From NCBI GenBank assembly GCA_049322475.1, contig JBMOQZ010000309.1, forward strand, positions 1,320 to 65,319: a DNA stretch of 64,000 bases. The letters run 5' to 3'. The notes under the pieces are model-generated. The model was given only the letters and a program-made list of their open reading frames with translations. It did not search any database and was not told the DNA's origin. The stretch is from Myxococcota bacterium (GTDB lineage: Bacteria; Myxococcota_A; UBA796; SXON01). Positions within the stretch are counted from its first letter, which is position 1, and every line of letters starts with the position of its first letter. Both the position numbers and the translations under genes were made by a program. Of this stretch, positions 38,001 to 52,476 are shown one piece after another.

Positions 38001-40192
38001 TCGTTGTCGTCGTCGAAGCGCTTGGACGGCGAGAAGAGCGTCTTGTCGTGGTTGATCCACCCGACGATGAGCAGCACCTCCGGGTGCAGCACGCGCTCCT
38101 TCTTGTTGAGCTCCTCGTACTGCCACCCCTTCGGAGACACGAGGCCACCCTGTCGGACGAAGGTGACATCGTCGTAGCCGGTGTAGGTGGCGTTGACCCA
38201 ATCCGCCACGAGGTTCAGCGGCACCCAACCCTGCCGGGCGCTGACGCCGTCGATGTCGTCGAAGATGGCCGGCCTGATGACCTCGAGGAGGCGTCGGACC
38301 TGCCGCACCGCCTGGGCGTCGCTCGGCCGCGCCATCGCCCGGTCCATCTTCGGCCAGAGCGCGCCCGAGAGGTACACCTCGGCGGGGAAGAGCTCGTCGA
38401 AGCTGTCCCCATCGACGCACCAGCCGGCCCCCACGACCTTCGCGAGGACCGTGTGGGGGTCGAACCGCCCGCCCACGGAGGCGTGGTACTCGGTCAGCTC
38501 CCGGACGGAGAGCTTCCGCGCCGCGCGGTAGAGGTGCTCAGCCTGCGCGACCACGTCGTCGGCGCGCCCGGTGTAGCGGGGCTCGAACACGGGCGGTTTG
38601 CGCCGCAGGCCGTCGATCAGGTGCCCGGCGCGGTCGAAGGCCGAGAGGAAGCGCTCGGCGCCGGTGTTCCCGCCGCGCGCGAGCTTCACGAGCTCGACCA
38701 TCGCGTGCGGGTTGCCGTTGCTCGTGTGCCAGGCGGTCAGTCCGTCGTGGAGCTCCGGCCAGAGCAGCGGCGGCTCCTCGGCGTTCTCGGCGGCGACGAG
38801 CGCGAGGTACTTGTCGACGCGCAGGCCGAGGAGGACCGCGCTGGCGAGCTCGCGCGGGAGGTCGGTGACGTCGGCCTCCGCGTTGCGCGTGACCCCCACG
38901 CGCCCCGCCGCCGTAGCGGGCTGGGCCGCCTGCTTCGACGGGAAGGCGATGACCTTGCAGTCCCCGCAGATCGGCCGCTCGACCAGGGCCGGGAGCCCCG
39001 TGAACTCGCCCTGAACCTGGTAGCCCCAGCGCGGCTTGGCGGTCTGGTCGTCCTCGCCGTGGTCGTCGCCGACCTCCCGCCCGAGGATGTGACGGGGGAA
39101 CTCCTTGAAGTAGCCCCCCGCGACGATGCCCTCGTCCGCGGCGTCGATCGCGTCGAGGTCCCCGCCACGCGCGCGGAAGAACAGCAGGTCCGTGACGAGC
39201 ATCGCGCCGGGGAAGATGGCCTCGCGTCGCTTCTCGTTGATGCTCGGGAGGCGGAACGCCGCGGCGAGGTGGTGTCGCTTCAGCACCTTCTCGCGGAGCG
39301 CCACGAACTGCGCCGTGCGGCTGGTGAGGAAGCCGCCGGGGACGAGGAAGACGCCGAGCCCGTCGGGCGCGAGCAGGTCGAGGCCGCGCCGCAGGAAGTA
39401 GTGGTACGCCATCTTCTCGCGGTAGGCCCGGTCGGGGTCCTCCGCGACGGACGCGCCCCGGATGCCGTAGGGCGGGTTGGACACGACGAGGCCAAGGCGC
39501 CCGCGCGCGGCGGCGCCCTTCTCGCGCACCCAGCGCTCGAACGGAGCGTTGGTGAGGTCGAGGTCGGGCCGGAGGGCCTTCAGCATGAACGAGGACAGTG
39601 CCGACCACTCCACAGCGTGCCAGGTGAGGCCGGGCACGGTCGCGAAGGCGTGGATGAAGCGGCCGATGCCCGCCGAGGGCTCGAGCGCGTGGACCGTGTC
39701 GCCCTCGTGCGGAAGCGACGGCACGAGCGGCGCCACGACGCGCGCGACCTCGCGTGCGACCTTCGTGGGCGTGTAGAACTCGTGCACGAGCCCGCGTTCC
39801 TCGGGGACCGGGAAGCCCGCGGGGAACTTGTCGGCGACGGCCTTGATGGAGAGGCCGCCCCAGCCCGAGTAGCCGGCGAGCACGCCGCGCTCCTCGGCGG
39901 TCGGGGCGCGGCGCTCGGCGTACAGGCGTGGCGCGATCGCCATCGCCGCGAGGTTCGCCGCCGTGCGCTTCGCGACCGTCCAGAACTCGGGGATGTCCTC
40001 CTGGGCGAAGGAGGAGTTGTTCGCGGCCTGCATCCGGGCGAGGAGCGGGCCGAGGTTCTGCTCGATGACCGCCTCGAGCGCGAAGCGGTTCCGTTCGAGG
40101 AAGTTGTCGAGGTAGGCCACGTCGACGCTCGCGGGGAGCCGCGTGCGGACGATGGGGACGATGGAGTCGAGGAGGCGGGCGGCGGCGGTCAT
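35054..40192 (-). CDS. 1,712-aa fusion of N6-adenine DNA methyltransferase and SNF2-family helicase (DarB-like architecture)
   Basis: MTase motif I LEPSAGIGRF and motif IV VVSNPPYG. Helicase motif I FDVGVGKTYTG, II LLIVDEAQNYKN, III LLSATPAKNSP, VI QQRNGRGVRQGN. ATG at 40192. Confidence 0.85.
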   Translation of the reverse strand: MTAAARLLDSIVPIVRTRLPASVDVAYLDNFLERNRFALEAVIEQNLGPLLARMQAANNSSFAQEDIPEFWTVAKRTAANLAAMAIAPRLYAERRAPTAEERGVLAGYSGWGGLSIKAVADKFPAGFPVPEERGLVHEFYTPTKVAREVARVVAPLVPSLPHEGDTVHALEPSAGIGRFIHAFATVPGLTWHAVEWSALSSFMLKALRPDLDLTNAPFERWVREKGAAARGRLGLVVSNPPYGIRGASVAEDPDRAYREKMAYHYFLRRGLDLLAPDGLGVFLVPGGFLTSRTAQFVALREKVLKRHHLAAAFRLPSINEKRREAIFPGAMLVTDLLFFRARGGDLDAIDAADEGIVAGGYFKEFPRHILGREVGDDHGEDDQTAKPRWGYQVQGEFTGLPALVERPICGDCKVIAFPSKQAAQPATAAGRVGVTRNAEADVTDLPRELASAVLLGLRVDKYLALVAAENAEEPPLLWPELHDGLTAWHTSNGNPHAMVELVKLARGGNTGAERFLSAFDRAGHLIDGLRRKPPVFEPRYTGRADDVVAQAEHLYRAARKLSVRELTEYHASVGGRFDPHTVLAKVVGAGWCVDGDSFDELFPAEVYLSGALWPKMDRAMARPSDAQAVRQVRRLLEVIRPAIFDDIDGVSARQGWVPLNLVADWVNATYTGYDDVTFVRQGGLVSPKGWQYEELNKKERVLHPEVLLIVGWINHDKTLFSPSKRFDDDNEKDIDKIRMKKAAEWDASFKGWCSATPERRLAIEHAYNRQFRGYIAPTYTAEPLSIARWRKDGPRLHPHQVAGARRVLANRGGLLAFDVGVGKTYTGIATLARSRQEGWCKRPVVLVPNSIVWKWEADIRRVLPDYRIAVIGSKKKVISRGERKGLATSDTDTPQERAEKWTRFQAGEYDVVLLTYTALGRTRMNEKAVRAYAEQCEAIQREVALRRRNAAKRKKLSERDEAILREGIAAWVAQQMELAEGWEYDPGIAWDDIGVDLLIVDEAQNYKNLYLPEDREGGVPRFMGNPGDGSKRAWQLDFRCAAVRRKTGGTGVVLLSATPAKNSPLEFYNLIQYVDPDAWRRMGIRDPEQFIDRYLRIEIKPVVTPSMEVEERGAVVGFQNLHELRDTILRYGEFKTAEDVGLKLPDPKVEMVEVDMDAAQDAKYDRYVREIEAALKSDDPSDKAKILGLLARMALVAIHSQLDAGYSWKNADQVSDPSSPKFDALAERVLANRTCGHIVFVDNVAAHRWVKMTLVSAGIAEDRIGVLNAEVAPNAADRQRIAKEFNGEPETDTKPKFDVVIANAIAYEGIDLQTRTCAIHHLDLPWEPATLQQRNGRGVRQGNTLSAIAIYYYFARRSQDGLRFNLIQGKRGWMTELLKSQNRDTNNPGAQMDMGPEEILLLISRNPEQTRARLEAVRVQREAEAKKKIATEASKLLRAINARFRNAERTRDGVEAARLRGEAEERLKHLSRVNVEAWPWAAASVVVRETPVLVPEGGGPLHEGLRVGVPSAWNASKIDYVEFGKVTKDGQIAFRSAGEAGWRMLKADSAQFGSLKPEHYGVTFPVDEESFTVKAAGTVANDRLRYSGDWPGLGWQHAPDAWVERTWPLVADTLVGALAKVSYYNAQSQRLPVVGPSGLRVVNAGAAAGTAGVTVLPPTEAGWQAFLAQAPASGLKFAELAEAGRWWWGRTIPRNLLSADEGKGDDDAREAS

Positions 40193-40296
40193 GGGGAGTC
40201 CTCGGTCGGCATGACGAGTGGACTTGGCACGAGGCGGAGCGTCGCGAACGCCCGTCGGGTCCACCGGCGAGGCCAGAACCTGGATACATCCAGTGC

Positions 40297-41022
40297 ATGG
40301 GCTCGATGGCGCGGTGGTACGTTCGGTGCGGGGACGATGCAGAGCTTCTGGCCCGCCTTCGCAAGCAGCACTCCGCGGCAGTGATCGACGCGCCCTCTGC
40401 GTTCGCCAGCCTTCCCGCCCCGGACGATGTAGGCGAGGCGGGCGTCCTGGAGATGTCCAACAGGTACGGTGCCGAAGTTATCTACCTCGGCTTCGTCAGT
40501 TCGACGGACTCCTTTGCCTTTACCCACTGCGTGGATGGACGCTGCGTGCGCCACCTGCGGTACGGGTGGGCGGAGGAGGAGCGCTGGTGGGAGGTCGTCG
40601 TTGGCGAACCCGAAGGGTGGGAACGCGGTGCCTTCTTCGAAGAGGCGCAGCTTGCGGACATCGATGAGGGGGACCCTGAGCGGGACGAAATCGTCGAGCT
40701 GTTCCGGCTTGGCCGGGTGAGGGCTGGCACCGGATGGCCCATCCTCGACGCGCGCGAAGCCGCCAGGGCGGCGGCGGTGCACTACCGCCTTACCGACTGG
40801 ATTGACGATTGGGGCGAGGGAGCGAACTCCCCTCGCCGAGAGATAACCACCCCCTCCGGGAGCATCATCTCTGTACAGCGCAGCGCCACGGCCGGGCCCG
40901 CTCCTCCCCCCGCGACCCCGACCGAACCTGCCGCTCCGCAACCCGCTGCGAGCGACCGCCCCTCGCCGCCCGTTGATCGTCCCAATGAGGCCACGAAAAA
41001 GCCGTGGTGGCGATTCTGGTAG
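40297..41022 (+). CDS. Hypothetical protein (241 aa), opposite strand to its neighbours
   Basis: ATG at 40297. Protein-like sequence with a Pro/Ala-rich tail ending KKPWWRFW. Composition is lower in GC, consistent with an acquired insert (moron). Confidence 0.5.
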   Translation: MGSMARWYVRCGDDAELLARLRKQHSAAVIDAPSAFASLPAPDDVGEAGVLEMSNRYGAEVIYLGFVSSTDSFAFTHCVDGRCVRHLRYGWAEEERWWEVVVGEPEGWERGAFFEEAQLADIDEGDPERDEIVELFRLGRVRAGTGWPILDAREAARAAAVHYRLTDWIDDWGEGANSPRREITTPSGSIISVQRSATAGPAPPPATPTEPAAPQPAASDRPSPPVDRPNEATKKPWWRFW

Positions 41023-41042: not shown

Positions 41043-41303
41043 TCATGCCGCCCCCTTCCCGATCTTCTCGATCAGCTCCCTGTCCCGCTCCGACAGCTCG
41101 ATCTGCACGGTGACCTTCACGCCCTTCCCGAGCAGGTACGCCCCCCAGACGAGCGCCCCGTAGGGCCCCATCGAGAGCAGGTAGTCGAGGCTCGGGCCGG
41201 CGCCGGCGGGCGCGCCGAGGCTGCCGCTGCCGTCCTGCGCGAATGCCACCGCGCACGACGCGAGGATGAGCGCCGGACCCACGCCGAGGAACCAGCGGCT
41301 CAC
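41043..41303 (-). CDS. Small membrane protein (86 aa)
   Basis: GTG at 41303 overlaps the upstream stop (GTGA). Hydrophobic segments WFLGVGPALILASCAVAFA and YGALVWGAYLLG. Confidence 0.45.
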   Translation of the reverse strand: MSRWFLGVGPALILASCAVAFAQDGSGSLGAPAGAGPSLDYLLSMGPYGALVWGAYLLGKGVKVTVQIELSERDRELIEKIGKGAA

Positions 41304-42838
41304 GACCCGCCTCCCATCTGCGCCGCGGCCTGCTTGATGGCGTCGGCGAAGGCGTTGACGAGCAGCTTGTCCTTCTCGGGATCGACGGCCGGCGCCTTCG
41401 GCTTCCGGGCGCGCGGCGCCTTCGTCGTCGGGACGGCCTGGGGGGGCGCCGCAGGCGGCCACACCGGCTGCATGGGCACCGTAGCGGAGGGCGTCTCGCG
41501 GGCGGTGATGCCGGAGGCGACGTCGTTGGGCGAGCGGGCGGCCTTCCCGATCTTCTGCTGACCCGCCGAGCACGACTTGGCCGCACGTGCGGCCGCCAGC
41601 GACACGCGCTCGGCGATGCGGCGCAGGGTGGCGACGATGTCGGGCTTCTCGCCCCGCTCGAGTGCCTCGCGCGCCTGGTTGTAGGCGTCCGCGCCCCGGC
41701 GCAGATCCTCCCACGCCATCTTCTGCTCCTTCCCCGAGCAGAGCGGCGACTTCACCAGCGCCTCGGCGCGACGCAGGAGCTTCGCCGCGCGCCCGAGCAG
41801 ATCGGGGACCTCGGTGGTGCCCCAGAGCGACTGCGAGGACTCCTCGAGCGCGGCGGCCTCCTTCTCCGTCGCCGACGCGATCTTCGCCACCGACGTCGGG
41901 CACGCCGGCGCCTCGGGCATCGGCACCTCGGCGAGCGCCGGAATCACCGCGACCCCCGGCATCCCGGTGAGCCCGAAACCCGCGGCGAGGTCGGGGGTCG
42001 TGGTGACAGGGGGGGCGCCGCCACTTCCCACGGAGTCCGTGGGGAGTCGGCCGCGGGTGAGCGCGCTCGCGTGCTTCGTCGCTTTGCCCTTTTCGCGCTT
42101 CCCGAACTTCGCGACGACGCCGCCGACCTCGTTGACGACGACCCAGCCGTCCGCCTGCTCCACGGCGCGGAAGCTGGACCGGGGCTGGTAGCGGCCGGTC
42201 GGGTCCTTCGCCTCCTTCGGCGGGGTGTACGGGTGCTGCGCGGCGTACTCGGGGTCCACCGTGTTGCGGCGCCGGGTGTCGCGGAAGGTGCACGCCTCGG
42301 CGACGAGCCCGACCACGAGCCCCATGCCGGCGGTGATCGCGTCGGAGAGGCCAGAGCGCTCGACGCTCTCCTGCTTCGCCTTGCCGAACCACTTCTCCGC
42401 GCGCTCGAAGGTGGCCGTCCAGCGGCCGTCGGGCCTCGAGGCGAGCTTGAGCACGCCGTAGCTCGCGACCTTGCGCTCGAGCGCCATCCGGGGGGTGCCG
42501 TTGTCGCACACGAGCGTCCCGGCCCACTTCCCCTTCAGAGTCGCGGGGCCGGCTGGCGGCGGGCTCGCCTTCATCTTGCGCAGCTCGGCCACCGCAGACG
42601 TGGGGTCGGTGTCGAGCTCGGGGGCGTGCGAAGGCGCGAGCCCGAGGTCGGTGCGCCACACCTTCGCGGGCTGCTTCTTGACCTGGTGGACGAGCAGCGC
42701 CGTCCCCTCGCGCGGGCGCATGGCGAACGCGACCTCGCCCCCGCAACCCCGCCCGTAGGCGAGCAGGATGCGCGGCACGTCCTCGTCGGAGCCGACGATG
42801 TTCAGGCGGAACTTCTCGATGGCGTTGGTCGTGGTCAT
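41300..42838 (-). CDS. Hypothetical protein (512 aa)
   Basis: ATG at 42838 (MTTTNAIEKFRLNIVG..). No P-loop or other motif recognised. Starts 2 nt after the stop of the upstream gene. Confidence 0.55.
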   Translation of the reverse strand: MTTTNAIEKFRLNIVGSDEDVPRILLAYGRGCGGEVAFAMRPREGTALLVHQVKKQPAKVWRTDLGLAPSHAPELDTDPTSAVAELRKMKASPPPAGPATLKGKWAGTLVCDNGTPRMALERKVASYGVLKLASRPDGRWTATFERAEKWFGKAKQESVERSGLSDAITAGMGLVVGLVAEACTFRDTRRRNTVDPEYAAQHPYTPPKEAKDPTGRYQPRSSFRAVEQADGWVVVNEVGGVVAKFGKREKGKATKHASALTRGRLPTDSVGSGGAPPVTTTPDLAAGFGLTGMPGVAVIPALAEVPMPEAPACPTSVAKIASATEKEAAALEESSQSLWGTTEVPDLLGRAAKLLRRAEALVKSPLCSGKEQKMAWEDLRRGADAYNQAREALERGEKPDIVATLRRIAERVSLAAARAAKSCSAGQQKIGKAARSPNDVASGITARETPSATVPMQPVWPPAAPPQAVPTTKAPRARKPKAPAVDPEKDKLLVNAFADAIKQAAAQMGGGS

Positions 42839-42839
42839 G

Positions 42840-43496
42840 TCACTTTCCCAGCTTGGGGAGGATGAAGAAGGCCGCGCCGGCGAGGCCCAGGGCCGCGACG
42901 AGCCAGCCCACGCCGGCTCCGCCGCCGCCTCCGGCATCCGGCACGGTCGGGGACGGGGAACGCGGCGCCGTCGCGTTCAGCCGGGCCAGCGCGTCGGCGA
43001 TCGCCGGGTCGCGCTCGATGAGGGCGACCTCGTCGGCGAGCGTCTGCGCCTCCTTGTAGTGGACGACGGCCCACGCGACGCCGGTGAAGGACACCGCGAT
43101 CACGGCGCCCGCCGCCGCGAGGGCGATGACGATGCCGGCCCAGCCGACGGCGATGGCCTTCCCCTTCTCCGCCTCGGTGGCCGGCCGCTCGTACCAGGTG
43201 TAGCCCTTCGCGTGCGCGGCCCAGGTCGTGAGCAGCTCGACGGTCCGGCGCAGCTTCCCCGTGAGCTCGGGGTCGCCGGGCTTCGCGGCCAGCGCCTGCA
43301 CCGCGGCCACCTGCGCACGGACCAGCCGCGCGCCGGTGTCGGCCACGATGGTCCGGTACGCCGCGACCACGCGCGCCACCGCGTTGCCGTTCTGCTCCAC
43401 TGCGGTCTGCACGCGGCTGAGCGACTGCTCCGCGGTGATGCGCATCGCGTTGATGCGCTCCGTGACGGCGTCGGCGTTGATCGGCAGGGTGGTCAC
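42840..43496 (-). CDS. Membrane protein (218 aa)
   Basis: GTG start. TM segments AIAVGWAGIVIALAAAGAVIAVSFTGVAWAVV and GVGWLVAALGLAGAAFFILP. Confidence 0.55.
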   Translation of the reverse strand: MTTLPINADAVTERINAMRITAEQSLSRVQTAVEQNGNAVARVVAAYRTIVADTGARLVRAQVAAVQALAAKPGDPELTGKLRRTVELLTTWAAHAKGYTWYERPATEAEKGKAIAVGWAGIVIALAAAGAVIAVSFTGVAWAVVHYKEAQTLADEVALIERDPAIADALARLNATAPRSPSPTVPDAGGGGGAGVGWLVAALGLAGAAFFILPKLGK

Positions 43497-43498
43497 GT

Positions 43499-44377
43499 TC
43501 AGCTCCCGGTGCGGCGCGGGTCACAGCCCACACCCGCCGCGGTTGGGGCCGCGCCCGGGGCGGGCGGGGCGGGCTGCGCTGGCGAGCCCTCCGGGTTCGG
43601 CGTGAGCTTCTGCTGGATGCGCTGCTTCACCAGCGGGTACAGCACGAGCGGGAGGATGCCGACGTTGTCCCCGGCGATCTTCTTGACCGCAGCGTCCGAG
43701 ACGAGCTGCACGATGAATAGGCCGGGGCTCACGGTCGCGACCATCGCCCGCTGGCCGGGGCGGGTCTGGATCTGTCCGCCGTCACCCAGCGGGATCGGCT
43801 TCGACCACTTGGGCGCGAAGGCCGACTTCACGGTGTCGAGCACGTTGCGCTTCGGGGCGGCCGGCTTCGCGGGCGCGGAGGCCGCGGGCCGGGCGGGGGC
43901 GCCGGGCTTGGCCTTCGGCTTGAACGGCCAGACGCCGAGCTCGGCGTCGAGCCAGTTCCCGTCGCCCTCGGTCTCGGGCGCGTCGGGCAGCTCCTCGAGC
44001 TCCTCGTCCGGGTCGTCGTCCTCGTCGGCGGGCTCCGCCTCGGGGATGTCCTCGAGCGCGGCGTCCATCTCGTCCTCGCCCGGCTTGAGCGCGCGGCGGG
44101 GCTTCTTCGGCTTCCAGCCGAGCAACTTCAGGTCGCTCATCACTACGCGGAGGTTGGTCTTGGCCTGGCGCACGGCGCCCTTCCAGCCGAGCGGCTTCCG
44201 GATGCGCAGATGCGCGATCCGCTTCTTCAAGCGGAACGCCTTGCGCAGCTTGCGACGGATCTCGCGCTGCTTGGGCGAGCGCTTGCGGCGAGGGCCGGCG
44301 ACGCCGTCGCGGGCGAGCTCGCCGGCGAACTCGACGCGGTTGACGACGCGGGCACGGATGTAGCGGGACGAGGTCAT
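43499..44377 (-). CDS. Charge-block protein (basic N-terminal ~95 aa, then an acidic run, then a Pro/Ala/Lys linker and a C-terminal domain)
   Basis: ATG at 44377 overlaps the upstream stop (ATGA). RRKRSPKQREIRRKLRKAFRLKKRIAHLRIRK.. is followed by DEMDAALEDIPEAEPADEDDDPDEELEELPD. Confidence 0.55.
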   Translation of the reverse strand: MTSSRYIRARVVNRVEFAGELARDGVAGPRRKRSPKQREIRRKLRKAFRLKKRIAHLRIRKPLGWKGAVRQAKTNLRVVMSDLKLLGWKPKKPRRALKPGEDEMDAALEDIPEAEPADEDDDPDEELEELPDAPETEGDGNWLDAELGVWPFKPKAKPGAPARPAASAPAKPAAPKRNVLDTVKSAFAPKWSKPIPLGDGGQIQTRPGQRAMVATVSPGLFIVQLVSDAAVKKIAGDNVGILPLVLYPLVKQRIQQKLTPNPEGSPAQPAPPAPGAAPTAAGVGCDPRRTGS

Positions 44378-44946
44378 CGAGACTCCCTGCGCCGGGAGCG
44401 GCGCGAACGACGGGGGGTGCGGTGGGCGTCGGGATCGCGGCGGAGACCGGCGAGGCGGACGCGGGTGACGATGCGCTCGTGGCACTGGCGGCCGTCGAGG
44501 CGCTCCTCCAGCATCCCGAGACGCGCGGAGGGGTCGTCGAACCAGACGGAGCCGTTGACGACGTAGCGGACGATGCAGTGGTAGAGCCCGTGGCCGCCCT
44601 CGCGGACGTGCGTCGTGAGCGCGACCTCCGCCGGGATGCTCTCGAGCCGCGCGGCCCGCGCCTCGGTGTAGCCGGGGTCGCGCGGTGACAGCGCTCTCCA
44701 CCCCCGCGCGATGAGCTCACCCGCACGCGCGGACGCGAGCGCGTCGCAGTCCTCCCAGCCCTGCGCGAGGAGCTGGATGTAGTCGGACCAGGTCTCCTCC
44801 TCCTCGCGCGCGTACCGAACGCTCGTCGCGTAGAGCAACGGCAGCGACGGCCGCTCGCGGAGCAGGCGCGCGTTGCAACGGGCCAGCCAGTTGAGCAGGC
44901 TGACCGCGTCGCGTTCGTTGAAGGTGAGGGCGACCGTGATGTTCAC
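44374..44946 (-). CDS. Transglutaminase-like (papain-fold) cysteine peptidase
   Basis: Cys motif AQGWEDCDALASARAGELIARGW. His/Asp motif GLYHCIVRYVVNGSVWFDDPS (H...W.DP). Confidence 0.55.
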   Translation of the reverse strand: MNITVALTFNERDAVSLLNWLARCNARLLRERPSLPLLYATSVRYAREEEETWSDYIQLLAQGWEDCDALASARAGELIARGWRALSPRDPGYTEARAARLESIPAEVALTTHVREGGHGLYHCIVRYVVNGSVWFDDPSARLGMLEERLDGRQCHERIVTRVRLAGLRRDPDAHRTPRRSRRSRRRESR

Positions 44947-44973
44947 GACGGCGTCCGTGGGGTGGGAGTTGGA

Positions 44974-45387
44974 TCAGGTGGTGAGCTGGAAAGGGCCGTT
45001 CGAGACGGCGTCGACGGTGCCGTAGACCGTGGGGTTGGTGCCGCCGCCGAGCACCAATCGCGCCCGGATGTACGGGAGCAGCGCGACGTTCGCGGCCTCG
45101 ATCACCTCGAGGTAGGTGCCCGGGGCCGTGCGGCTCACCCCGGTCGCGAGGTCGAGCCAGGTCGAGCCGTCGACCGAGCCCTGGATGACCCACTGCGCCG
45201 TCGGCGAGGTGGCGCCGCCGGAGAAGTTCATCGAGGTGACGAACCGGAAGTCCTGGGCGTCGTCGGTCTGGAGGTCCCCGTTGCCGGGCAGGATCCGGTA
45301 GGTGGTCCCGTTCGTGGTGACCGCGACCGCGGCCGTCGACAGGATCTGCAGGAGCTTGGTGGAGAGCTGGTAGGCGTAGCAGCGCAT
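44974..45387 (-). CDS. Small beta-sandwich protein (137 aa)
   Basis: Alternating beta-strand pattern. WVIQGSVDGSTWLDL resembles discoidin/jelly-roll type domains. Confidence 0.5.
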   Translation of the reverse strand: MRCYAYQLSTKLLQILSTAAVAVTTNGTTYRILPGNGDLQTDDAQDFRFVTSMNFSGGATSPTAQWVIQGSVDGSTWLDLATGVSRTAPGTYLEVIEAANVALLPYIRARLVLGGGTNPTVYGTVDAVSNGPFQLTT

Positions 45388-45405
45388 GGCGGCAGTTCCC
45401 GGGGG

Positions 45406-46038
45406 TCAGAGGTGGAGGAGGAAGACGAGCCGCCAGGCGTAGTTGCCCGAGGGCAGGACGAGGCGGACGGTGGCGGCGTCCCCGATGAGGGCGCCGGGCG
45501 AGGGTTGGGCGTTGCCGGGGTACCGGCCGCGCGTGACGCCGTTCACGTCACGGAGTTCGAGGAACGAGGTGGAAGCGAGGGCGTTGTCGGAGAGCTCGAG
45601 GCGGCCGAATCGGGCCCAGGGGGGCGGCGACACGTCGACGTTGGCTCCCTGCGCGACGTCCGCGAAGCTTCCGCGCGCGGTGAGTTGGTTCTCGGTGTCG
45701 CAGTACCCGTCGGCGATGGCCGCCCGCGCCTGGATGCCCGCGGATGTCGAGAGGTTGGCCCCGAACACTTGGAGCATCGTCGCGTGGACGCAGATCCGGG
45801 CGCAGCGCGGGACGTCGAGGACCGCGGTGCGCGTGGCGCCGCCGCCGCCCGACCACACGAGCTTCGCCACCCAGGGCGTCTGCTCGTCGGACCAAAGGTC
45901 GACGATGCGCCACGCACCCTCGCCATGTCCGGAGGACTGGGCCGTGAGCACCTCCGTCTCGGTGCCCGTCACCCCGGCGGTCGCGGAAGCGGGGAGCTTC
46001 GCGGTGCCGGAGCGACGGGAGAGCTGGCAGGTGCCCAC
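45406..46038 (-). CDS. Beta-rich protein (210 aa), jelly-roll-like
   Basis: Coherent ORF 18 nt upstream of the next gene, with strand-like segments (TRTAVLDVPRCARICVHATMLQVF, VRLVLPSGNYAWRLVFLLHL). Confidence 0.5.
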   Translation of the reverse strand: MGTCQLSRRSGTAKLPASATAGVTGTETEVLTAQSSGHGEGAWRIVDLWSDEQTPWVAKLVWSGGGGATRTAVLDVPRCARICVHATMLQVFGANLSTSAGIQARAAIADGYCDTENQLTARGSFADVAQGANVDVSPPPWARFGRLELSDNALASTSFLELRDVNGVTRGRYPGNAQPSPGALIGDAATVRLVLPSGNYAWRLVFLLHL

Positions 46039-46055
46039 GGCTCACCCCGGCGCGA

Positions 46056-46814
46056 TCAGCAGCGGGCCTGGCGGACGCGCACCTTGCCGTAGAAGGAGAG
46101 CTTCAGGGCGGTGGTCGTCGAGCCGGCCGTGTAGTTGATCGTGACGGGCACGCCGGCCTTCAGCACGCGGCCGGAGAACCCGGGCCCGTGGTAGGCGGTC
46201 GGCGCGAGCAGGGCCGCGTCGAGGTTGTCCAGCACCACCGGGTCGTCGCCGGAGATGATGGTGTTGATCGTCGCGCTGGTGTCGCCCGTCGCGAAGATCT
46301 TGGACAGGTGGAGGCTCGTCCGCGGCGTGAGGGTCACGCTCATGGACTGGCCCAGCGCGGTGGCCACGGAACCGGTGACGGTGACGTTGCGCTGCACGAC
46401 CTTCCCCTTGCTCGCCTTCTTGAGGCGGCCCTTGAGCTGCTTGTTCTGGCGCGCGAGGCGGCTCTGGCGACGCTTGCTGCGGCGCTGGGCCCGGCGACGC
46501 TTGCGGGCCGCTCCGACGTCGTCGCCGAAGTCGTCGCCCAGGTCGTCCCCGAGGTCGTCGCCCAGGTCGTCCCCGAGGTCGTCGCCCAGGTCGTCCCCGA
46601 GGTCGTCGCCCAGGTCGTCGCCGAAGTCGTCGCCGAAGTCGTCCCCGAGGTCGTCCCCGAGGTCGTCCCCGTCGTCCTCGTCGTCGTCGCCGTCGAAGTC
46701 GGCGCCGAAGCCGGGGTGGCGGAAGCCGTCGAGCGAGGCGCGCAGGGAGGTGCGGTCGACGAGGCACTCCCCGTCGGCGGTGAAGGTGACGAGGGCCCAG
46801 ATGGGAGCGGTCAT
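46056..46814 (-). CDS. Protein with 13 tandem GDD[LFV] repeats, an Arg/Lys block and a C-terminal beta-rich domain
   Basis: ATG at 46814. ..DGDDDEDDGDDLGDDLGDDFGDDF(GDDL)x7GDDFGDDVGAARKRRRAQRRSKRRQSRLARQNKQLKGRLKKASKGK.. is followed by about 130 aa of beta-strand-like sequence. Confidence 0.6.
   Translation of the reverse strand: MTAPIWALVTFTADGECLVDRTSLRASLDGFRHPGFGADFDGDDDEDDGDDLGDDLGDDFGDDFGDDLGDDLGDDLGDDLGDDLGDDLGDDLGDDFGDDVGAARKRRRAQRRSKRRQSRLARQNKQLKGRLKKASKGKVVQRNVTVTGSVATALGQSMSVTLTPRTSLHLSKIFATGDTSATINTIISGDDPVVLDNLDAALLAPTAYHGPGFSGRVLKAGVPVTINYTAGSTTTALKLSFYGKVRVRQARC
46518..46670. repeat. Coding tandem repeat, 12-nt unit (24-nt super-unit gtcgtcgcccaggtcgtccccgag), about 13 copies
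   Basis: Read directly from the sequence. Encodes the GDD[LFV] array of the minus-strand gene 46056..46814. Confidence 0.9.
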
Positions 46815-46885
46815 GGCAGTTGTCCTTGGGTGAAGAGGAAATTCAGGAGTTGGGTGGATGGGTGGGAGACGCGGAGGGGCGGCGA

Positions 46886-47536
46886 CTACTCGTCGTCCTC
46901 CTCGCGGTCGCGGCGGGCGCGGATGAAGCGCTGCTTGCGGCGGCGGCGCCGACCGGCGACGTCGTCGTCGCCCTCGGTGCCCGGCGTCATCCGGACCATG
47001 CGGGCGATCTCGCCGATGTCGTCGGCCGCGATCTGGCGCGCCGCGGGGACGCCGGCGGTGGCCGGCGCGGCGCCGGGGGCCGGCGCGGCGGCCGGGGCGG
47101 GGGTCGTGGCCGGCGGCGTCGCCGGGGCGTTCTTCTTGTCGGCGAGCGCGCGGCCGGCGTGGCGACCGATGCGCCCGACGCCCGCGGCGAGGAGACCGTT
47201 GCCGATCGCCAGCGCGTGGCTGCCGCCCTTGCCGTTCATCGCCTGGTAGAGGCCGTAGCCGCCGACGACGAGGCCGCCGCCGATGCGCAGGTCGACGGGC
47301 CCGAGGTCCATCTTCTCCTCGCCGAGGTACCCCTCCGCGAAGGACGCCGCGAACACCGTGCCCTGCGTCTCGGCCGTGGCGATCATCGCCTCGGCGATGG
47401 ACTCGGTCACTTCCTTGGCGCGCTCGATGCGGCCGCCGAGGCTCTTGATCTTGTCCACGGCCTCGTTGAGGAGGCCGGTCTTCTTGCTGTCGGCCGGCTT
47501 CTCGCCTGCGATGACCTTCTGGAGGGCGGTGCTCAT
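46886..47536 (-). CDS. Hypothetical protein (216 aa) with a glycine-zipper-like hydrophobic core and a basic/acidic tail
   Basis: ATG at 47536. GGGLVVGGYGLYQAMNGKGGSHALAIGNGLLAAGVG. Tail is GRRRRRKQRFIRARRDREEDDE. Confidence 0.55.
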   Translation of the reverse strand: MSTALQKVIAGEKPADSKKTGLLNEAVDKIKSLGGRIERAKEVTESIAEAMIATAETQGTVFAASFAEGYLGEEKMDLGPVDLRIGGGLVVGGYGLYQAMNGKGGSHALAIGNGLLAAGVGRIGRHAGRALADKKNAPATPPATTPAPAAAPAPGAAPATAGVPAARQIAADDIGEIARMVRMTPGTEGDDDVAGRRRRRKQRFIRARRDREEDDE

Positions 47537-47647
47537 GGGTGCGTTCCTGGTGAGGGTGCCGGCTGCGCCGGGGGAGAGGAGCGACCGGGGAGCCCGGCCG
47601 ACGCAGACCATGTTGCGCGCCGAACGTCCGGATGGAAGGGTGTTTTG

Positions 47648-47721
47648 CCAACCGCAGCCAACCGCGGTGGGGGCGGGTTTTGCGGTTGGCGAGGCCTTCC
47701 GTGGACCGGCTGCGCGGTTGG
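47648..47721. promoter_or_regulatory. Four GCGGTTGG motifs (two reverse, two forward) in the divergent intergenic region 47537-47800
   Basis: CCAACCGC at 47648 and 47658. GCGGTTGG at 47682 and 47714. The two inner copies are each preceded by TTTTG. Confidence 0.55.
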
Positions 47722-47800
47722 TAGACCGGGGGGCCCAAGGGAGCGCGGCTGGGGGACTCTTGGAAGTTGTCGCGCCTGCCCGGCTCCGCTACCTGAGCGA

Positions 47801-48295
47801 ATGACGACCTGGTTCGTGTTTCACGGAGTGACCTTCGACCACGAGTTCCACGGAGGCTTCCTGTGGGCACCCTCCGCCGATCGGGACGGGAAGCGGAAAC
47901 CCGATTGGCTCGCCGTCGGAGAGGTGCGCCGCGGCGACGTCGTCTACTCGTGCAGGGCGCGCATCATCACGCACGTCCTTGTCGCCACCGCGGATGGAGC
48001 CGCTGCAAGGCGCCCCGCTCCACCCTATCCGCACCCCGACGGCGCCACCTCGGATGGGAATTCCGTGGCAGTGCGGTACGCCGAACTGCCACGGCCGCGG
48101 GTTGCGCTGGACACCATCAAACGGGAGGCGCTGGAGCTGTTCACCGGGCCCGGTGGTCCCCTCGACCAGCGTGGGCACGGGAACATGGGATACCTGTACC
48201 GGCTCAACGAGGGTGCGGCCGAGTACCTGCGAGCACGAGCGTTACGAGTGTTTGAGCCAGAGCTTGAGCGCATTCGCGCTCAAGCGCTCCAGTAG
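47801..48295 (+). CDS. PUA-like/EVE-like protein (tentative), paralogue of 7764..8225
   Basis: ATG at 47801 (MTTWFVFHGV..). See the alignment noted for 7764..8225. Confidence 0.5.
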   Translation: MTTWFVFHGVTFDHEFHGGFLWAPSADRDGKRKPDWLAVGEVRRGDVVYSCRARIITHVLVATADGAAARRPAPPYPHPDGATSDGNSVAVRYAELPRPRVALDTIKREALELFTGPGGPLDQRGHGNMGYLYRLNEGAAEYLRARALRVFEPELERIRAQALQ

Positions 48296-48363
48296 GGACC
48301 CGGCACAAGCCAAGGTATTGAGGCCGTGGTCGGACCTTCAGGAAGCCGCGGCGACGGCGACCC

Positions 48364-50031
48364 CTACTTTGCACCTCCCTTGGCTTGCAGGGACTGGAAC
48401 GCTCGCAGAACTCCGGCCGGGAGCGCGGCGGTCGCGGTCCCCTCGATGCGCGAAAGCGTCGCCTGCCCAATGCCGAGCCTCGCCCCGAGCTCCTTCTGCG
48501 TGAGGCCACGGGCACGCCTGTAGGCGAACAGGTCGGCGCCTGTGACGGTCGCCTCGCCGGCCGGCGGCGGGAGCGCCTTGGCGGCGACGGGCGCGACCGC
48601 TTGCTGCGGCAGCGGGGGCTGGGGCGCGAGAGTGGGCACGACGAGCGCCTCGACGAGGTCGCGGACGGAGCGGACGCGCCATGGTCCGTCCGCTCTCGCC
48701 GCAAGGGCGGCGACCGCGTTGGCGAGCGCCGCGGTGATGTCGTCGGCCACCGTGACGAACCGCTGCGCCTCCTCGCCCCGGAGCGCGACGATCGCGAAGG
48801 CACGGGCGGGACCGACGGCCACCTGTGGCGCCGGGGCCGCGGGCGGCGCAGCCTGAACCGGGGCGACTGCGGCAGCGGTTTCCTCGAGGGCAGGCTCGAC
48901 GACTACGACCGCGGGCTGCTCGACGGACAGCGGGGCGGGCGCGACTGGCGCCGGTCTCCCTGCCGGGATGCCGTGGCGCTTCCGGTACATGCGGACGCCC
49001 TCCGAGGTCAGCCCCGACCGCGAGGCCACCTCGGCGTCGCTCAGCACGCCGATGATGTCGAGGAAGGCGTCGAGTTTCGAGGAGCGACGCGAGCGGGACT
49101 CGCTCGGCGCCGCGACGTGCTCGTCCGGCGGCTGCACGGGCTCCGCCTTCTCGGGCGGGGGCCGGCCCTCGTAGCCAGGGATCCCCCGCCGCGACCGGTA
49201 CTTCGCCACCGCGTGCGACGACACGCCCGCCATCGCGGCGATCTCCGAGTCCGGCGCGGTGCCGAGCAGGTCCCGGAAGGGCTCGATGGCGGAGCGCTTC
49301 GTGCGCTCCGTGGGCTCGCTTGCCGACGTGGCGGCTGGCTTGCGCGCCTCCCCGGTCCGGTAGCGGAACCCGTCGTAGGCCGGGATGCCGAGCTTCCGGC
49401 GGTAGGCGCCGATGACGCCGCGACTCACGCCGGCCTCGTCGGCGATGACGTCGTCCGCGATGGTACCGAGTCGTTCGCGGTAGACGGCCAGGGGATCCGC
49501 CGGCGCCTCCTGCGCGGCCTCGACCGTGGAGGGCGGCCGCCGGACTGTCTCGGTCGGTGACCCCTCCGTGGAGACGCGACGACGCAGCACAACGGACTCG
49601 GCGTCCCCGTTCTGCACCCGGACGGAGGGGAGCGGCTCCTGCCTCGGCGCCGTGCCAAGGCCGGGCGGCGGCCGCAGGAACGGCGCGATCCCGTGCTCGC
49701 GGCGGTACACCTTCACCTCGTCCACGGACACGCCGGCCAGCTGCGCGACCTCGGCGTCCGGCATGCGGCCCACCTTGCTCCGGTGGCGATCGAGGGGCGC
49801 GCGGTCGTCCGTCGGCGGTGCCTCGGGCGGCGCGGGATCGTCCGCGGACTTGCGCTTGGGTCCGCGGGGCATGTTCACCTTGGTCTCGCCCGCCAGCTCG
49901 AGCGCGCGTCGGAGCGTGTGTATCGGGAGTCCGAACCGCTCCGACAGCGCGGCGTACGACAGGGTGTCCTTGATCGAGAGCAGCTCCGGCCACCACGGGG
50001 CCGAGGGGACGTCTTGGGGGGCGATGCTCAT
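48364..50031 (-). CDS. DNA-binding protein with 4-5 tandem HTH repeats plus a C-terminal XRE-type HTH (555 aa)
   Basis: ATG at 50031. Repeats are DAEVAQLAGVSVDEVKVYRREHGIAPF, DDVIADEAGVSRGVIGAYRRKLGIPAY, DSEIAAMAGVSSHAVAKYRSRRGIPGY and DAEVASRSGLTSEGVRMYRKRHGIPAG. The C-terminus is RRARGLTQKELGARLGIGQATLSRIEG. Confidence 0.7.
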   Translation of the reverse strand: MSIAPQDVPSAPWWPELLSIKDTLSYAALSERFGLPIHTLRRALELAGETKVNMPRGPKRKSADDPAPPEAPPTDDRAPLDRHRSKVGRMPDAEVAQLAGVSVDEVKVYRREHGIAPFLRPPPGLGTAPRQEPLPSVRVQNGDAESVVLRRRVSTEGSPTETVRRPPSTVEAAQEAPADPLAVYRERLGTIADDVIADEAGVSRGVIGAYRRKLGIPAYDGFRYRTGEARKPAATSASEPTERTKRSAIEPFRDLLGTAPDSEIAAMAGVSSHAVAKYRSRRGIPGYEGRPPPEKAEPVQPPDEHVAAPSESRSRRSSKLDAFLDIIGVLSDAEVASRSGLTSEGVRMYRKRHGIPAGRPAPVAPAPLSVEQPAVVVVEPALEETAAAVAPVQAAPPAAPAPQVAVGPARAFAIVALRGEEAQRFVTVADDITAALANAVAALAARADGPWRVRSVRDLVEALVVPTLAPQPPLPQQAVAPVAAKALPPPAGEATVTGADLFAYRRARGLTQKELGARLGIGQATLSRIEGTATAALPAGVLRAFQSLQAKGGAK

Positions 50032-50114
50032 GCGCGTGTCTACCGGGCTCGGCGGAGGGTAGCGCGACGGCTCCGCGCCGCACAAACCGCGCCTCACAGG
50101 TACACTCGCGACAG

Positions 50115-51788
50115 ATGACCATCGGTACGCACACCCCGAGGCGTCCGGATGACGCCGGCCTGAGCATCGGTGAGCACGCCAATACCGGCGTGGCTGAGCT
50201 GTTGGATCGCGCTTGGCGCGCGTGGGATCTCGGCGACGGCGAAGGCCTCCTCGCCCTGATCGCGCAGGCCCGCAAGCTCGGGCCCCTCGACCTCGCGACC
50301 GTCGCATGGATGGACGAGGCCGAGGCCGTGGCGCGCGAGCAGGCCGACATCGCGCGGTTCCAGCGGACGCGCGCACTGCTCCGGGGCGGCAACCTCCCCG
50401 ACGGGCTGCGTGCCTGGCTCGGCCTCTCCTCCTCCGCGCGCGCCGCGATCCGGCAGGAATTCGACCTGCGCGAGTTCCGCTGGCTCGACGAGCTGGACGC
50501 CGGGCGGCTCGACGCGGTGCTCGCGCTCGGGCGCGCCCTCGCCGCGATGGAAGGGGGCGACGTCGGCGAGGCACGCGCCCTGCTCGATCCGCACCGGCGG
50601 CTCCTGGAGGCGCTCCCCGACGGGCGCGACGCGCTGGAGCGAGCGCGGGCCGCCCCCGCACACGCGCCGAAGGAGGAGCCGGTCCGCGTCGTCGCCCCGC
50701 CGCCGCCCGCGAGCTCGGTGTCGATCGCCGCGCTGGCATCGCACATGGCCGCGGGGGGCACGTTCAAGGTGGAGGCCCCCTCCGCCGACTGGTCCCTCGT
50801 GCTCGCGCTGGCGCTGCGCGACCTGTTGCCCGGGAAGGACGCGGATGGCGACCTCGCGCGGATCCAGAAGGTGATCGACGGGCGCGATGCCTGGAAGGGG
50901 CTCCCCGCCGCCCTTGCCGTGCGCCTCATCGAGCTCATCGCGGCGCGTCTCCGCTCGCTGCAGGTCGCCGGGATGCCCGATCGACGCATCGACCTCGCGT
51001 TCTCCTGCATCTCCACGTGGATGAAGAAGGAGAAGCCAGGCTTCGCCTACGGTCTGATGCGCGAGCACCGTCCGCGCGGGAATTCCTGGGAGGAGGACGT
51101 GGACGCGGCCGTCGACGACCTCTACGACGCCCTGCCGGCCACGGAGCCCACGCCCAAGGTGGGGAAGCGCCTCGCAGCCCTCGAGGCGCTCGTCGGCGAG
51201 TTGGGCACCTGCCCGGAGGAGCTGCGTGACGCGGTGCGCGCGCAGATCCGCGCCGAGGTGAGCGTGCTGCTCGCGGAAGGCGTATCTGCGCGGAACACGC
51301 GCTTGGTGCACATCGTCGCGCCGGTGGCCGACGAGCTCACCGGGCCCGACATGCGTACCCTTCGGCGTGCCGCGCGCGCCGCGGTCGCCTCCGCCGCGGC
51401 GGAGCCCGAGGACGACGACGAGGTCGAGGGCCCCATCCCGGACGACTGGGCCTGGTGGTGGGTGACGCGAGGGAAGCGCGCCGTGATGGTGGGGGGCGAC
51501 CCGCGCGAGCCCAACCGCGTGCGTCTCGAGAAGGCCTTCGCGTTCAGCGAGCTCGCGTGGGAGCAGGCCGAGTACAGCCGCAACTCGCTCCAGAAGGTCC
51601 GCGACCGCGTTCGCAACGGAGGCGTGGACATGGTGATCATCCTGTCGCGCTTCGTGGGGCACGACGCCGACGAGGTCATCCAGCCCTCGTGCCGGGAAAC
51701 CGGCGTGCATTTCGTCGCGGTGAAGAGCGGCTACGGAGTGGCTGGCATCCGCCGGGCGATCGAGCGCTTCGTGTCGCTTGGGAGGTGA
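50115..51788 (+). CDS. Hypothetical protein (557 aa) with a DUF2325-like C-terminal domain
   Basis: KRAVMVGGDPRE.., GGVDMVIILSRFVGHDADEVI and GVHFVAVKSGYGVAGI resemble DUF2325 as I recall it. Divergent from the multi-HTH gene (83-bp spacer). Confidence 0.5.
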   Translation: MTIGTHTPRRPDDAGLSIGEHANTGVAELLDRAWRAWDLGDGEGLLALIAQARKLGPLDLATVAWMDEAEAVAREQADIARFQRTRALLRGGNLPDGLRAWLGLSSSARAAIRQEFDLREFRWLDELDAGRLDAVLALGRALAAMEGGDVGEARALLDPHRRLLEALPDGRDALERARAAPAHAPKEEPVRVVAPPPPASSVSIAALASHMAAGGTFKVEAPSADWSLVLALALRDLLPGKDADGDLARIQKVIDGRDAWKGLPAALAVRLIELIAARLRSLQVAGMPDRRIDLAFSCISTWMKKEKPGFAYGLMREHRPRGNSWEEDVDAAVDDLYDALPATEPTPKVGKRLAALEALVGELGTCPEELRDAVRAQIRAEVSVLLAEGVSARNTRLVHIVAPVADELTGPDMRTLRRAARAAVASAAAEPEDDDEVEGPIPDDWAWWWVTRGKRAVMVGGDPREPNRVRLEKAFAFSELAWEQAEYSRNSLQKVRDRVRNGGVDMVIILSRFVGHDADEVIQPSCRETGVHFVAVKSGYGVAGIRRAIERFVSLGR

Positions 51789-51791
51789 GCG

Positions 51792-52094
51792 ATGGGGAAG
51801 TGGAAGCCGCGCGGAGATGTGAAGCTGGACCGCGGGCAGTTCACGATCACTACGCCGGACGAAGGCGCGGTCCTGCAGGAGCTCATCGAGCGCGCGGCGG
51901 TCAACACCGTGAAGCCCGGGCACGCGTGGTCGCGGATCGAGGCGAAGGTCGACGAGAAGGGGAAGCCGCTCCGCATCGGCTACCTGACGTTCCACCTCGA
52001 CGCGCACAAGCGCGTGCTCGAAGTCGTCGAGACCTGGGACGGGAAGGAGACGGCGAGGCGGACGCGGTCGCTCGACGAGGGCGGGGCGAACTGA
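51792..52094 (+). CDS. Hypothetical protein (100 aa)
   Basis: Starts 4 nt after the preceding stop. Its last 12 codons lie inside repeat copy 52058..52104. Confidence 0.5.
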   Translation: MGKWKPRGDVKLDRGQFTITTPDEGAVLQELIERAAVNTVKPGHAWSRIEAKVDEKGKPLRIGYLTFHLDAHKRVLEVVETWDGKETARRTRSLDEGGAN

Positions 52095-52104
52095 CCTACG
52101 TTCC
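52058..52104. repeat. 47-bp direct repeat, copy 1
   Basis: gcggacgcggtcgctcgacgagggcggggCgaactgacctacgttcc. Identical to 52477..52523 except for one base. Confidence 0.9.
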
Positions 52105-52159
52105 GGGCGCTCGGGCACATGGCGAGGCCATGCCCGCTCATCAGGGCGCCCGCAGAATG

Positions 52160-52357: not shown

Positions 52358-52476
52358 GCCGGACGATTGGCACGCCGCCCGTTGCTGGTCAAACTCATAG
52401 GCCCGTTTCGCGAGCTCCCGGACCTTCTCGACGAGGACGGTCGCCTCGGCGAGGTGATGGCCCTCGAGCAAGCGAA

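Follow-up and report, generated by a model that had tools for sequence, protein, structure and literature searches.

A conserved nine-gene block of freshwater Myxococcota appears to be the core of a multi-copy integrative element and may encode a tailless virus-like particle

We analysed a 64,000-nucleotide stretch of a Myxococcota bacterium (NCBI GenBank assembly GCA_049322475.1, contig JBMOQZ010000309.1, positions 1,320 to 65,319 of the forward strand), hereafter the window, in which a block of nine genes (G1-G9) occupies positions 41043-47536. Judged from its sequence and its relatives, this block appears to be the conserved core of a multi-copy integrative mobile element of ~25-35 kb in uncultured bacteria of high GC content, mainly freshwater Myxococcota. 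Our preferred reading, to which we assign a probability of roughly 45%, is that the operon builds a tailless, membrane-associated virus-like particle carrying the element DNA. A preliminary description of the window had left the choice between a virus-like or particle-forming element and a non-viral structure; the mobile, virus-like context and a double-sandwich fold are in keeping with the first, the capsid itself being putative. The limits which that description drew around the block proved too narrow, as the functional unit extends from ~30.5 to ~58.8 kb.

With a G+C content of ~71% in the window, raw lists of open reading frames (ORFs) are uninformative, and genes were called from plots of G+C at third codon positions (GC3) and position-specific GC frame plots, together with ORF analysis and inspection of start codons. 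The nine co-oriented minus-strand genes all have strong GC3 periodicity and are separated by gaps of 1-71 nt, with 4-nt overlaps at three junctions (G5/G6, G6/G7, and G8/G9). Coding periodicity is absent upstream of G1 (47.6-48.3 kb), and on its downstream side the block is bounded by a plus-strand gene (40297-41022) that runs convergently to it. Here, the tight packing of nine co-oriented genes that had been described earlier is borne out, down to the same coordinates, by GC3 and ORF analysis. Moreover, gene order and gene lengths are kept in 39 related loci, and the pairwise ratio of nonsynonymous to synonymous substitution (dN/dS) lies at 0.2-0.45 for most block genes, values that mark them as real and under selection. 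By GC3, synteny, and dN/dS, the nine block genes are real genes. The fastest-evolving genes of the cassette are G4 (0.64) and T1 (0.95), the latter belonging to a neighbouring gene trio described below. The block comprises the following genes.

G1, 46886-47536, minus strand: 216 aa, of the glycine-zipper type; first gene of the operon; core member
G2, 46056-46814, minus strand: 252 aa; core member, found in 36 loci
G3, 45406-46038, minus strand: 210 aa, predicted tandem double beta-sandwich; candidate for the shell or a main structural role; core member
G4, 44974-45387, minus strand: 137 aa, probable single beta-sandwich, CBM32/discoidin-like; accessory member
G5, 44374-44946, minus strand: 190 aa, putative papain/transglutaminase-like Cys-His-Asp enzyme with a basic tail
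G6, 43499-44377, minus strand: 292 aa; core member
G7, 42840-43496, minus strand: 218 aa, helical N-terminal part and two transmembrane segments; core member
G8, 41300-42838, minus strand: 512 aa, basic; core member
G9, 41043-41303, minus strand: 86 aa, small membrane protein with one N-terminal segment

The block is syntenic in more than 45 loci from metagenomes and metagenome-assembled genomes (MAGs), mostly of Myxococcota. A scan of species-representative genomes gave 35 loci, all in MAGs and most from lakes, which are labelled Myxococcota, Sandaracinus, Deltaproteobacteria, or 'uncultured proteobacterium'. Close homologues of G3 amount to 114 clusters of 60-81% identity from metagenomes and MAGs, and a G3 profile run against 1.84 billion cluster representatives matched 227 clusters at E<=1e-3, nearly all of 190-210 aa, which puts the family at a minimum of 227 clusters at 50% identity. 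In the 19 long loci that were mapped, the order is fixed: trio genes T3-T2-T1, then G1-G9, zero to three variable genes, and a methylase-SNF2 protein of ~1,700 aa. The trio abuts G1, either directly or across a few variable genes, and does so on the opposite strand in 18 of these 19 relatives and on the same strand in the remaining one (L030). In the window, the features around the block are these.

Divergent trio T1-T2-T3, 56498-58759, plus strand: T1 of 367 aa, T2 of 213 aa (acidic), and T3 of 163 aa
Operon promoter region and cargo, 47537-56497, no strand assigned: ~8.5 kb of window-specific cargo (47.6-56.4 kb)
Giant methylase-SNF2 protein, 35054-40264, minus strand: 1,712-1,736 aa, DarB-like dyad
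c22, 34089-35057, minus strand: 322 aa, Gly/Ala-rich N-terminal membrane anchor and weak GH46/lysozyme-like match; putative peptidoglycan hydrolase
97-aa protein, 33765-34058, minus strand: conserved distal gene
C5 DNA methylase, 32551-33612, minus strand: conserved distal gene
GHKL-ATPase/HExxH protein, 30498-31403, minus strand: N-terminal ~300 aa, truncated here; 825-840 aa in relatives (L049, L050)
Large serine recombinase, 28945-30537, plus strand: identified by Pfam at the distal edge; probable integrase

Serine recombinases or resolvases also occur in loci L011, L030, and L050, and in relatives a resolvase or serine recombinase follows the GHKL-ATPase/HExxH gene. Upstream of the trio, relatives carry primase-helicases (D5_N/PriCT/DUF5906, VapE, or Prim-Pol) and helix-turn-helix (HTH) proteins in switch-like pairs. 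The outer flanks differ between loci, and variable cargo is found at fixed hot spots. Several MAGs hold diverged copies, one with seven, one with about six, one with four, and two with three each; copies within a MAG share ~70% amino acid identity and lie in differing genomic surroundings. Thus a recombinase, replication genes, diverged copies in differing contexts, and variable cargo, as belong to an integrative element, are all found, and from the recombinases, primase-helicases, conserved core, and locus-specific flanks we conclude that the unit is such an element, of ~25-35 kb. A search for tRNA genes as an integration site found none in the window.

Versions of the cassette are present in lineages of different GC content, and distant ones were recovered from five contexts (L040, L041/L042, L043/L045, L046, and L047). 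T1, T2, T3, G1, G2, G3, G5, G6, G8, and the giant methylase-SNF2 protein recur in these, with L040 ending before the position of the giant, and G7 was detected in four of the five (not in L041/L042). One such version (L043/L044/L045) sits on a 24.7-kb contig that was obtained in two independent assemblies from different samples (Ga0068852_100000543 and ERZ27252077 k141_6906475), whose ends agree within 35-44 nt on both sides. This agreement suggests that the contig ends are element boundaries or molecule ends, and the contig may represent the element as an independent molecule, linear or bounded in some other way. Its distal part encodes proteins of 237, 141, 779, and 98 aa and a membrane-anchored M23 peptidase, 14 nt past whose stop codon one end of the contig is reached. 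No recombinase was recognised among its predicted proteins, nor is a terminal repeat visible in the sequence covered, which is all but its last 94 nt. The M23 peptidase takes the position held by c22 in the window, and an anchored cell-wall hydrolase thus appears to be a recurrent, non-orthologous feature of the element family.

Alternatively, the block could be a non-mobile host gene family, for example one for a structure in the cells or the envelope of these Myxococcota, expanded by duplication. G5 and c22 are indeed 80-90% identical across lakes worldwide, and in the single run containing the window the Logan contigs have a uniform depth of ~21x inside and outside the block. However, the differing genomic contexts of the copies, the recombinases, primase-helicases, and cargo hot spots that accompany the block, the stand-alone 24.7-kb contig, and the spread over lineages of differing GC content all speak for mobility, and we hold a host gene family to be highly improbable.

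Among the neighbours of the block, the giant protein is the most telling. Its Pfam domains are Eco57I/N6_Mtase (residues 256-341), SNF2/ResIII (820-949), and Helicase_C (1287-1366), and its adjacency to the block is conserved even in the distant cassettes. Methylase-helicase dyads of this kind are known as 'polyvalent' proteins, with DarB of phage P1 as the archetype; they travel with the invading DNA in virions or during conjugation, and their genes neighbour those for late functions or transfer (Iyer et al. 2017, PMC5512222). As in the DarB-type dyads, the giant has an adenine methylase N-terminal to a SWI2/SNF2 helicase and lies beside putative late or transfer genes, though its Pfam methylase match is to Eco57I, and both a place in the EcoKI/TaqI-like clade and delivery by a particle are putative. 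Phage P1 itself, being tailed and equipped with terminase and portal, is unlike the element here. That the giant stays strictly linked to the block even in deeply diverged relatives is, of the contextual evidence, what argues most strongly for a module of DNA transfer or morphogenesis. Moreover, a DNA-transfer or late module is usually accompanied by genes such as those found here, namely recombinases, primase-helicases, a DarB-like giant, and a peptidoglycan hydrolase.

For G3, the candidate shell protein, an AlphaFold2 model from a shallow alignment (predicted template modelling score, pTM, 0.54) was superseded by one from a deep alignment of 129 diverse sequences, which reached a mean predicted local distance difference test (pLDDT) score of 95.7 and a pTM of 0.90. 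This all-beta model has two sandwiches, the first made up of eight strands (residues 10-110) and the second of seven (residues 117-208), and we describe G3 as a predicted tandem double beta-sandwich protein. G3 was searched by Foldseek against the PDB and BFVD. The matches in the PDB, with E-value, template modelling (TM) score, and root-mean-square deviation (rmsd), include the following.

XepA of PBSX (PDB 6i56): E 5e-6, TM 0.32, rmsd 22 Å
Secreted Bacteroidales protein (4h3w): E 9e-6, TM 0.29, rmsd 22 Å
phiCjT23 capsid protein: E 1.2e-5, TM 0.36/0.33, rmsd 9.8 Å
PM2 P2: E 2.4e-4, TM 0.34, rmsd 9.2 Å
PBCV-1, PR772, and SGIV capsid proteins: E 2.1e-4 to 2.0e-3, TM 0.33-0.36, rmsd 11.6-13.6 Å

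Other matches include the ectodomains of SIDT proteins (SIDT1), CUB pairs, and the diatom PyShell, and in BFVD only generic sandwich pairs in tail fibres were found. Among all PDB matches, the best global superpositions of G3 are with double-jelly-roll capsid proteins of the PRD1/PM2/FLiP type, and the Foldseek probabilities for these lie between 0.97 and 1.0. XepA and the secreted Bacteroidales protein have E-values equal to or better than those of the capsid proteins. XepA shares two consecutive beta-sandwich domains with G3, and its place in the lysis or late region of a prophage can be likened to the position of the block. However, XepA has 279 aa, comes from the prophage-like element PBSX, and has no sequence similarity to G3, and its domain arrangement differs, given the TM of 0.32 over an rmsd of 22 Å. 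A mean-field direct coupling analysis of jelly-roll strand pairing with 250 G3-family sequences (effective number, Meff, 160) had too much noise. Since non-capsid proteins with two sandwiches score equally well, G3 is at most a putative capsid protein; the comparison that had been proposed for it thus yields capsid proteins as the best global fits, at TM values of only 0.33-0.36 and with non-capsid equals. In addition, cellular homologues of double-jelly-roll capsid proteins are reported (PMC8812541), and on that account the double-jelly-roll fold alone is not diagnostic of a capsid.

The remaining block proteins were compared in the same light. No Pfam, PHROG, PADLOC, NCBIfam, or PDB sequence match was obtained for any of the nine, and PDB profile searches with G3, G4, G5, G8, and T3 gave nothing significant. 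The 512-aa G8, first described as an ORFan, is one of these. Its N-terminal domain and a hydrophobic GMGLVVGL segment are both conserved, its length ranges over 311-770 aa in other loci, and it has one or two weak membrane segments. Together with the two segments of G7, the single one of G9, and the glycine-zipper type of G1, this upholds the earlier call of several membrane or glycine-zipper proteins. In some copies, an unrelated 133-aa protein (c14) stands in place of G9. Of the three consecutive beta-sandwich proteins that had been proposed, G3 is the one that its AlphaFold2 model supports as all-beta with two sandwiches, and G4 has only weak CBM32/discoidin-like profile matches in the PDB (E ~0.4). 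With hhalign, paralogy among the halves of G3, G4, and the C-terminus of G2 was not detectable. G4 is absent from L041 and L043 and triplicated in L040, for which reason we regard it as accessory; missing as it is from distant cassettes, it cannot be an essential penton.

Adjacent blocks of opposite charge, which had been ascribed to three proteins, were found in two, with a short tail of this kind in the third. G2 ends in a beta-rich domain of ~115 aa, ahead of which come an N-terminal segment, an acidic (DDLG)n repeat, and an Arg/Lys block; the acidic stretch covers residues 26-104 and the basic one residues 96-146. The acidic part is encoded by 16 copies of a 12-nt repeat (46513-46708) that specify (DDLG/DDFG)n. 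G2 varies between 226 and 268 aa among copies, which probably reflects repeat number, and distant cassettes carry one to three G2 copies. Logan word depth jumps to 78-92 at this repeat (as against ~21-40), which is what a shared repeat would give. In G6, basic residues 21-75 precede acidic residues 96-150, a Pro/Ala-rich region, and a hydrophobic C-terminal part. By comparison, G1, which is conserved in 31 loci and in the distant cassettes, is not strongly hydrophobic and has as its charge feature only a short RRRRRK...EEDDE tail.

Conservation within the block is highest for G5, with a mean column identity of 81%. Its WEDCDxLA motif (Cys67) is invariant, and His123 (YHC) and Asp137/138 (DDPS) are invariant in close relatives and at least 90% conserved in a wider alignment. 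At least 417 homologues exist, none of which is named or has a Pfam domain. The transglutaminase-fold Cys peptidase of the preliminary description is a putative assignment from conserved Cys, His, and Asp motifs, for which Pfam and the PDB gave no match.

In the particle that we propose, G3 would be the major shell protein, and G4 a sandwich at the surface or for receptor binding that varies and can be dispensed with. The Arg/Lys blocks of G2, G6, and the G1 tail would serve to bind DNA and condense it, the acidic blocks masking the adjoining basic segments until G5 processes them, and the membrane components G1, G7, G8, and G9 would function in assembly, delivery, or lysis. Co-assembly, in place of a packaging motor, would enclose the DNA, the anchored lysozyme-like enzyme would open the cell wall, and the giant protein would be delivered with the DNA to protect it against restriction, as DarB does in phage P1.

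Several findings weigh against this proposal. At HMM (hidden Markov model) sensitivity, no terminase, portal, tail, or packaging ATPase gene was found among the called genes of 26.4-62.9 kb, a set that excluded a few small ORFs (e.g., 27716-28387 and 28620-28898). This agrees with what had been noted from the start and rests on Pfam, PHROG, and NCBIfam scans as well as a Walker-A scan of 20-64 kb, in which the only match was the KAP NTPase at 23893-26253, outside the element, with none in the block or trio proteins. An FtsK-HerA packaging ATPase is likewise absent from the block and from the precomputed Pfam tracks of related loci, although the Odin and FLiP double-jelly-roll groups do without one too (PMC5894146), and an element of 25-35 kb is large for encapsidation without a motor. 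The core offers no universal candidate for a penton, G4 being non-universal. The TM scores of G3 against capsid proteins are below the level for fold identity, and the non-capsid two-sandwich proteins (XepA, BDI_1231, SIDT1, CUB pairs, and PyShell) score alike. The protease- or transglutaminase-like assignment of G5 is putative and at the level of motifs, as Pfam Transglut_core was not matched even at E<=1 and a PDB profile search gave no match. Neither excess copy number nor excision junctions are visible in the Logan contigs, and no RNA runs are listed. A tblastn search with G5 against GenBank phages and PLSDB plasmids found no match, hence no isolated phage or plasmid as carrier. Finally, IMG/VR has none of the close relatives and only three distant versions, on contigs of 77-118 kb that are listed there as viral:

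L051-L053: UViG_3300025141_000040, 3300007512_001412, and 3300028028_000007 in IMG/VR

The suggested check against a metagenomic viral database therefore turned up distant versions but no close relative. These three are expanded cassettes, with up to ~16 kb for G1-G8, three G2 paralogues, and extra proteins of 586-719 aa. The block DNA, too, has no similarity match among GenBank phages and PLSDB plasmids, and the exact G3 sequence is not on record. Apparent 'joints' between Logan contigs were taken as spurious, as all of them rest on matches of 20-23 nt.

We then considered whether the element is a true member of the double-jelly-roll lineage (Varidnaviria, PRD1/PM2-like), with G3 as a very small capsid protein and an ATPase that was missed or lies elsewhere, a reading that overlaps with the particle proposed above. 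The prominence of capsid proteins in the Foldseek results and the two sandwich domains of the G3 model are in line with this, as are the membrane proteins and a lytic enzyme, which PRD1 and PM2 also have. Indeed, the block resembles Tectiviridae (PRD1), Corticoviridae (PM2), Finnlakeviridae (FLiP-phiCjT23), and 'Odin' in being a compact co-oriented module in which small beta-sandwich proteins go together with a lytic enzyme and numerous small proteins of the membrane. The lack of a packaging ATPase is shared with the Odin and FLiP double-jelly-roll groups, whose genomes are small (PMC5894146). Nevertheless, TM scores stay low despite the pTM of the model, and with 210 aa G3 is below the smallest capsid chains among the matches (239 residues in phiCjT23 and 269 in PM2). 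Neither sequence nor profile links the block to the PRD1/PM2 type, and it has no FtsK-HerA ATPase, conserved penton, protein-primed polymerase, or Rep. In contrast to that type, the element measures 25-35 kb and always comes with the 1,700-aa methylase-SNF2 protein. Considering also the cellular double-jelly-roll proteins mentioned above, we find membership in this lineage decidedly improbable.

Terminase, portal, and packaging ATPase are lacking as well in capsid-less or motor-less enveloped viruses of prokaryotes and in plasmid vesicles, namely Plasmaviridae L2, Pleolipoviridae, and pR1SE, in which membrane proteins dominate and a basic DNA-binding protein occurs. Their genomes are of 7-17 kb and their hosts are wall-less or archaeal, whereas the hosts here are diderm, and none of them is known to have a counterpart of the double beta-sandwich protein, of the Cys-His-Asp enzyme, or of the DarB-like giant.

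A further possibility is that the block encodes no capsid but a transfer or envelope-spanning apparatus, for vesicle-mediated or otherwise unconventional DNA export and uptake, or else a surface structure. The sandwiches would then be adhesins or carbohydrate binders, and the membrane proteins and hydrolase a conduit. The resemblance of G4 to CBM32/discoidin modules, the standing of XepA and a secreted Bacteroidales protein as the top G3 matches by E-value, the membrane proteins in the block, and the cell-wall hydrolases after it would suit such an apparatus, as would the lack of any capsid hallmark. Methylase-SNF2 dyad proteins also accompany conjugative systems (PMC5512222). On the other hand, the beta proteins G2, G3, and G4 have no signal peptides (membrane segments being found in three or four block proteins), and no VirB4, VirD4, relaxase, or secretion ATPase occurs among the genes searched. 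Such an apparatus would, moreover, have no obvious use for the basic, DNA-binding-like blocks or for the conserved Cys enzyme. Taken together, we judge this reading to be rather unlikely.

Alternatively, the cassette could be a conflict module, for anti-defence or defence, that is carried as cargo and acts with the giant, the C5 methylase, and the GHKL-ATPase/HExxH protein, without being structural. The window is rich in defence genes (GmrSD, type I restriction-modification, and KAP NTPase), the helicase of the giant is similar to those of DrmD, ZorD, and DpdE, T1 is near-neutral or diversifying by its dN/dS of 0.95, and the proteins are all of unknown kind. However, there is no PADLOC match for any block or trio protein, and the giant reaches 67-75 bits against DrmD models, for which the NCBIfam cut-off is 610. 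More generally, DrmD, ZorD, and DpdE are matched by its helicase part only, at 45-75 bits where the cut-offs are 500-1500. For a defence system, the presence of up to seven diverged copies in a MAG would be unusual, and it is the cassette that stays constant and the cargo that varies around it. Beta-sandwiches, charge-block proteins, and small membrane proteins also fit a structure better than a set of enzymes. A conflict module is, in our estimation, improbable.

Known identities were also tried and set aside. For a tailed prophage (Caudoviricetes), no Pfam or PHROG hallmark was found in the scanned genes or in the nearly complete 24.7-kb relative. For a conjugative type IV system, VirB4/VirD4 and relaxase are missing from the window genes searched and from the tracks of related loci. 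No PADLOC or NCBIfam model of DISARM, Zorya, BREX, or Dpd matches the block or trio, and a gas vesicle, microcompartment, or encapsulin was rejected because the block has no Pfam match at all. With the defining features of tailed phages, conjugative systems, and known defence systems not found, and the double-jelly-roll comparison being ambiguous, we regard the cassette as a new gene system; apart from the giant and the hydrolase, its core proteins belong to no described family to which they could be assigned. A more specific version of the particle reading would make it a new virion outside the known realms, with a minimal non-canonical double-sandwich shell, 25-35 kb of double-stranded DNA, no motor, maturation by a Cys protease, and a co-packaged DarB-like methylase-translocase; this we consider unlikely.

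If particles are made, freshwater Myxococcota would harbour a widespread family of temperate viruses, or of transfer agents that resemble viruses (at least 227 G3 clusters and at least 417 G5 proteins), with a new minimal shell protein and a motor-less enclosure of ~30 kb of DNA. The element family is almost absent from IMG/VR, and a virion lineage of the new kind sketched above would be one that escapes current virus-detection pipelines. If no particles are made, a conserved cassette of at least 12 genes that is always tied to a DarB-like methylase-translocase would be a target in the search for a new DNA-transfer or conflict mechanism. In either case, the element matters for the binning of these organisms, since its copies, as many as seven in a MAG, break up the assemblies.

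Between T1 and G1, the window-specific cargo occupies a position where relatives have only ~450 bp. The cargo genes encode a 577-aa multi-HTH protein (48364-50097), proteins of 557 and 100 aa (50115-52094), and proteins of 556 and 366 aa (52515-55119), and apart from the HTH motifs no family match was found for them. A 52-bp direct repeat (52053-52104 and 52472-52523, 96% identical), the sole DNA repeat of such size in the window, flanks ~370 bp with a weak 103-aa ORF. About 60-130 nt upstream of G1 (47600-47680) lies a motif, AA....CTT.C...GTC..C.GG, that is moderately conserved in 24 loci and may serve the operon as promoter or operator. In the trio, the C-terminal part of T1 (56498-57601) contains STI1/HOP-like 'PELxExxxxPE' repeats and matches the STI1-like 'CAP repeat' of PDB 8vd6 (E 1.7e-6).

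At the opposite end of the element, the truncated GHKL-ATPase/HExxH gene abuts the serine recombinase gene, and the element may be damaged or rearranged here. Further out, positions 1-26253 are defence-island-like, with a NOV_C protein (2-3214), GmrSD (5772-7754), a GTPase/DUF697 protein (8902-10125), a complete type I restriction-modification set hsdR/S/M (11521-18104), and the KAP-family NTPase (23893-26253); none of these genes is common to related loci. Beside the trio, a minus-strand group (59335-62891) encodes proteins of 226, 196, 337 (weak winged-helix match), and 388 aa, of which the 196-aa protein (60109-60699) consists of a tubulin/FtsZ GTPase domain only (Pfam E 1.4e-26). Three of the four genes, the tubulin-like one being the exception, recur beside the trio in L032, and the group is possibly an accessory module that includes a TubZ-like gene for partition. 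Just past the serine recombinase, at 26526-28387, we noticed a second T1 copy (374 aa, ~35% identical) with a weak T2-like gene and without the block, which may be the remnant of a neighbouring element.

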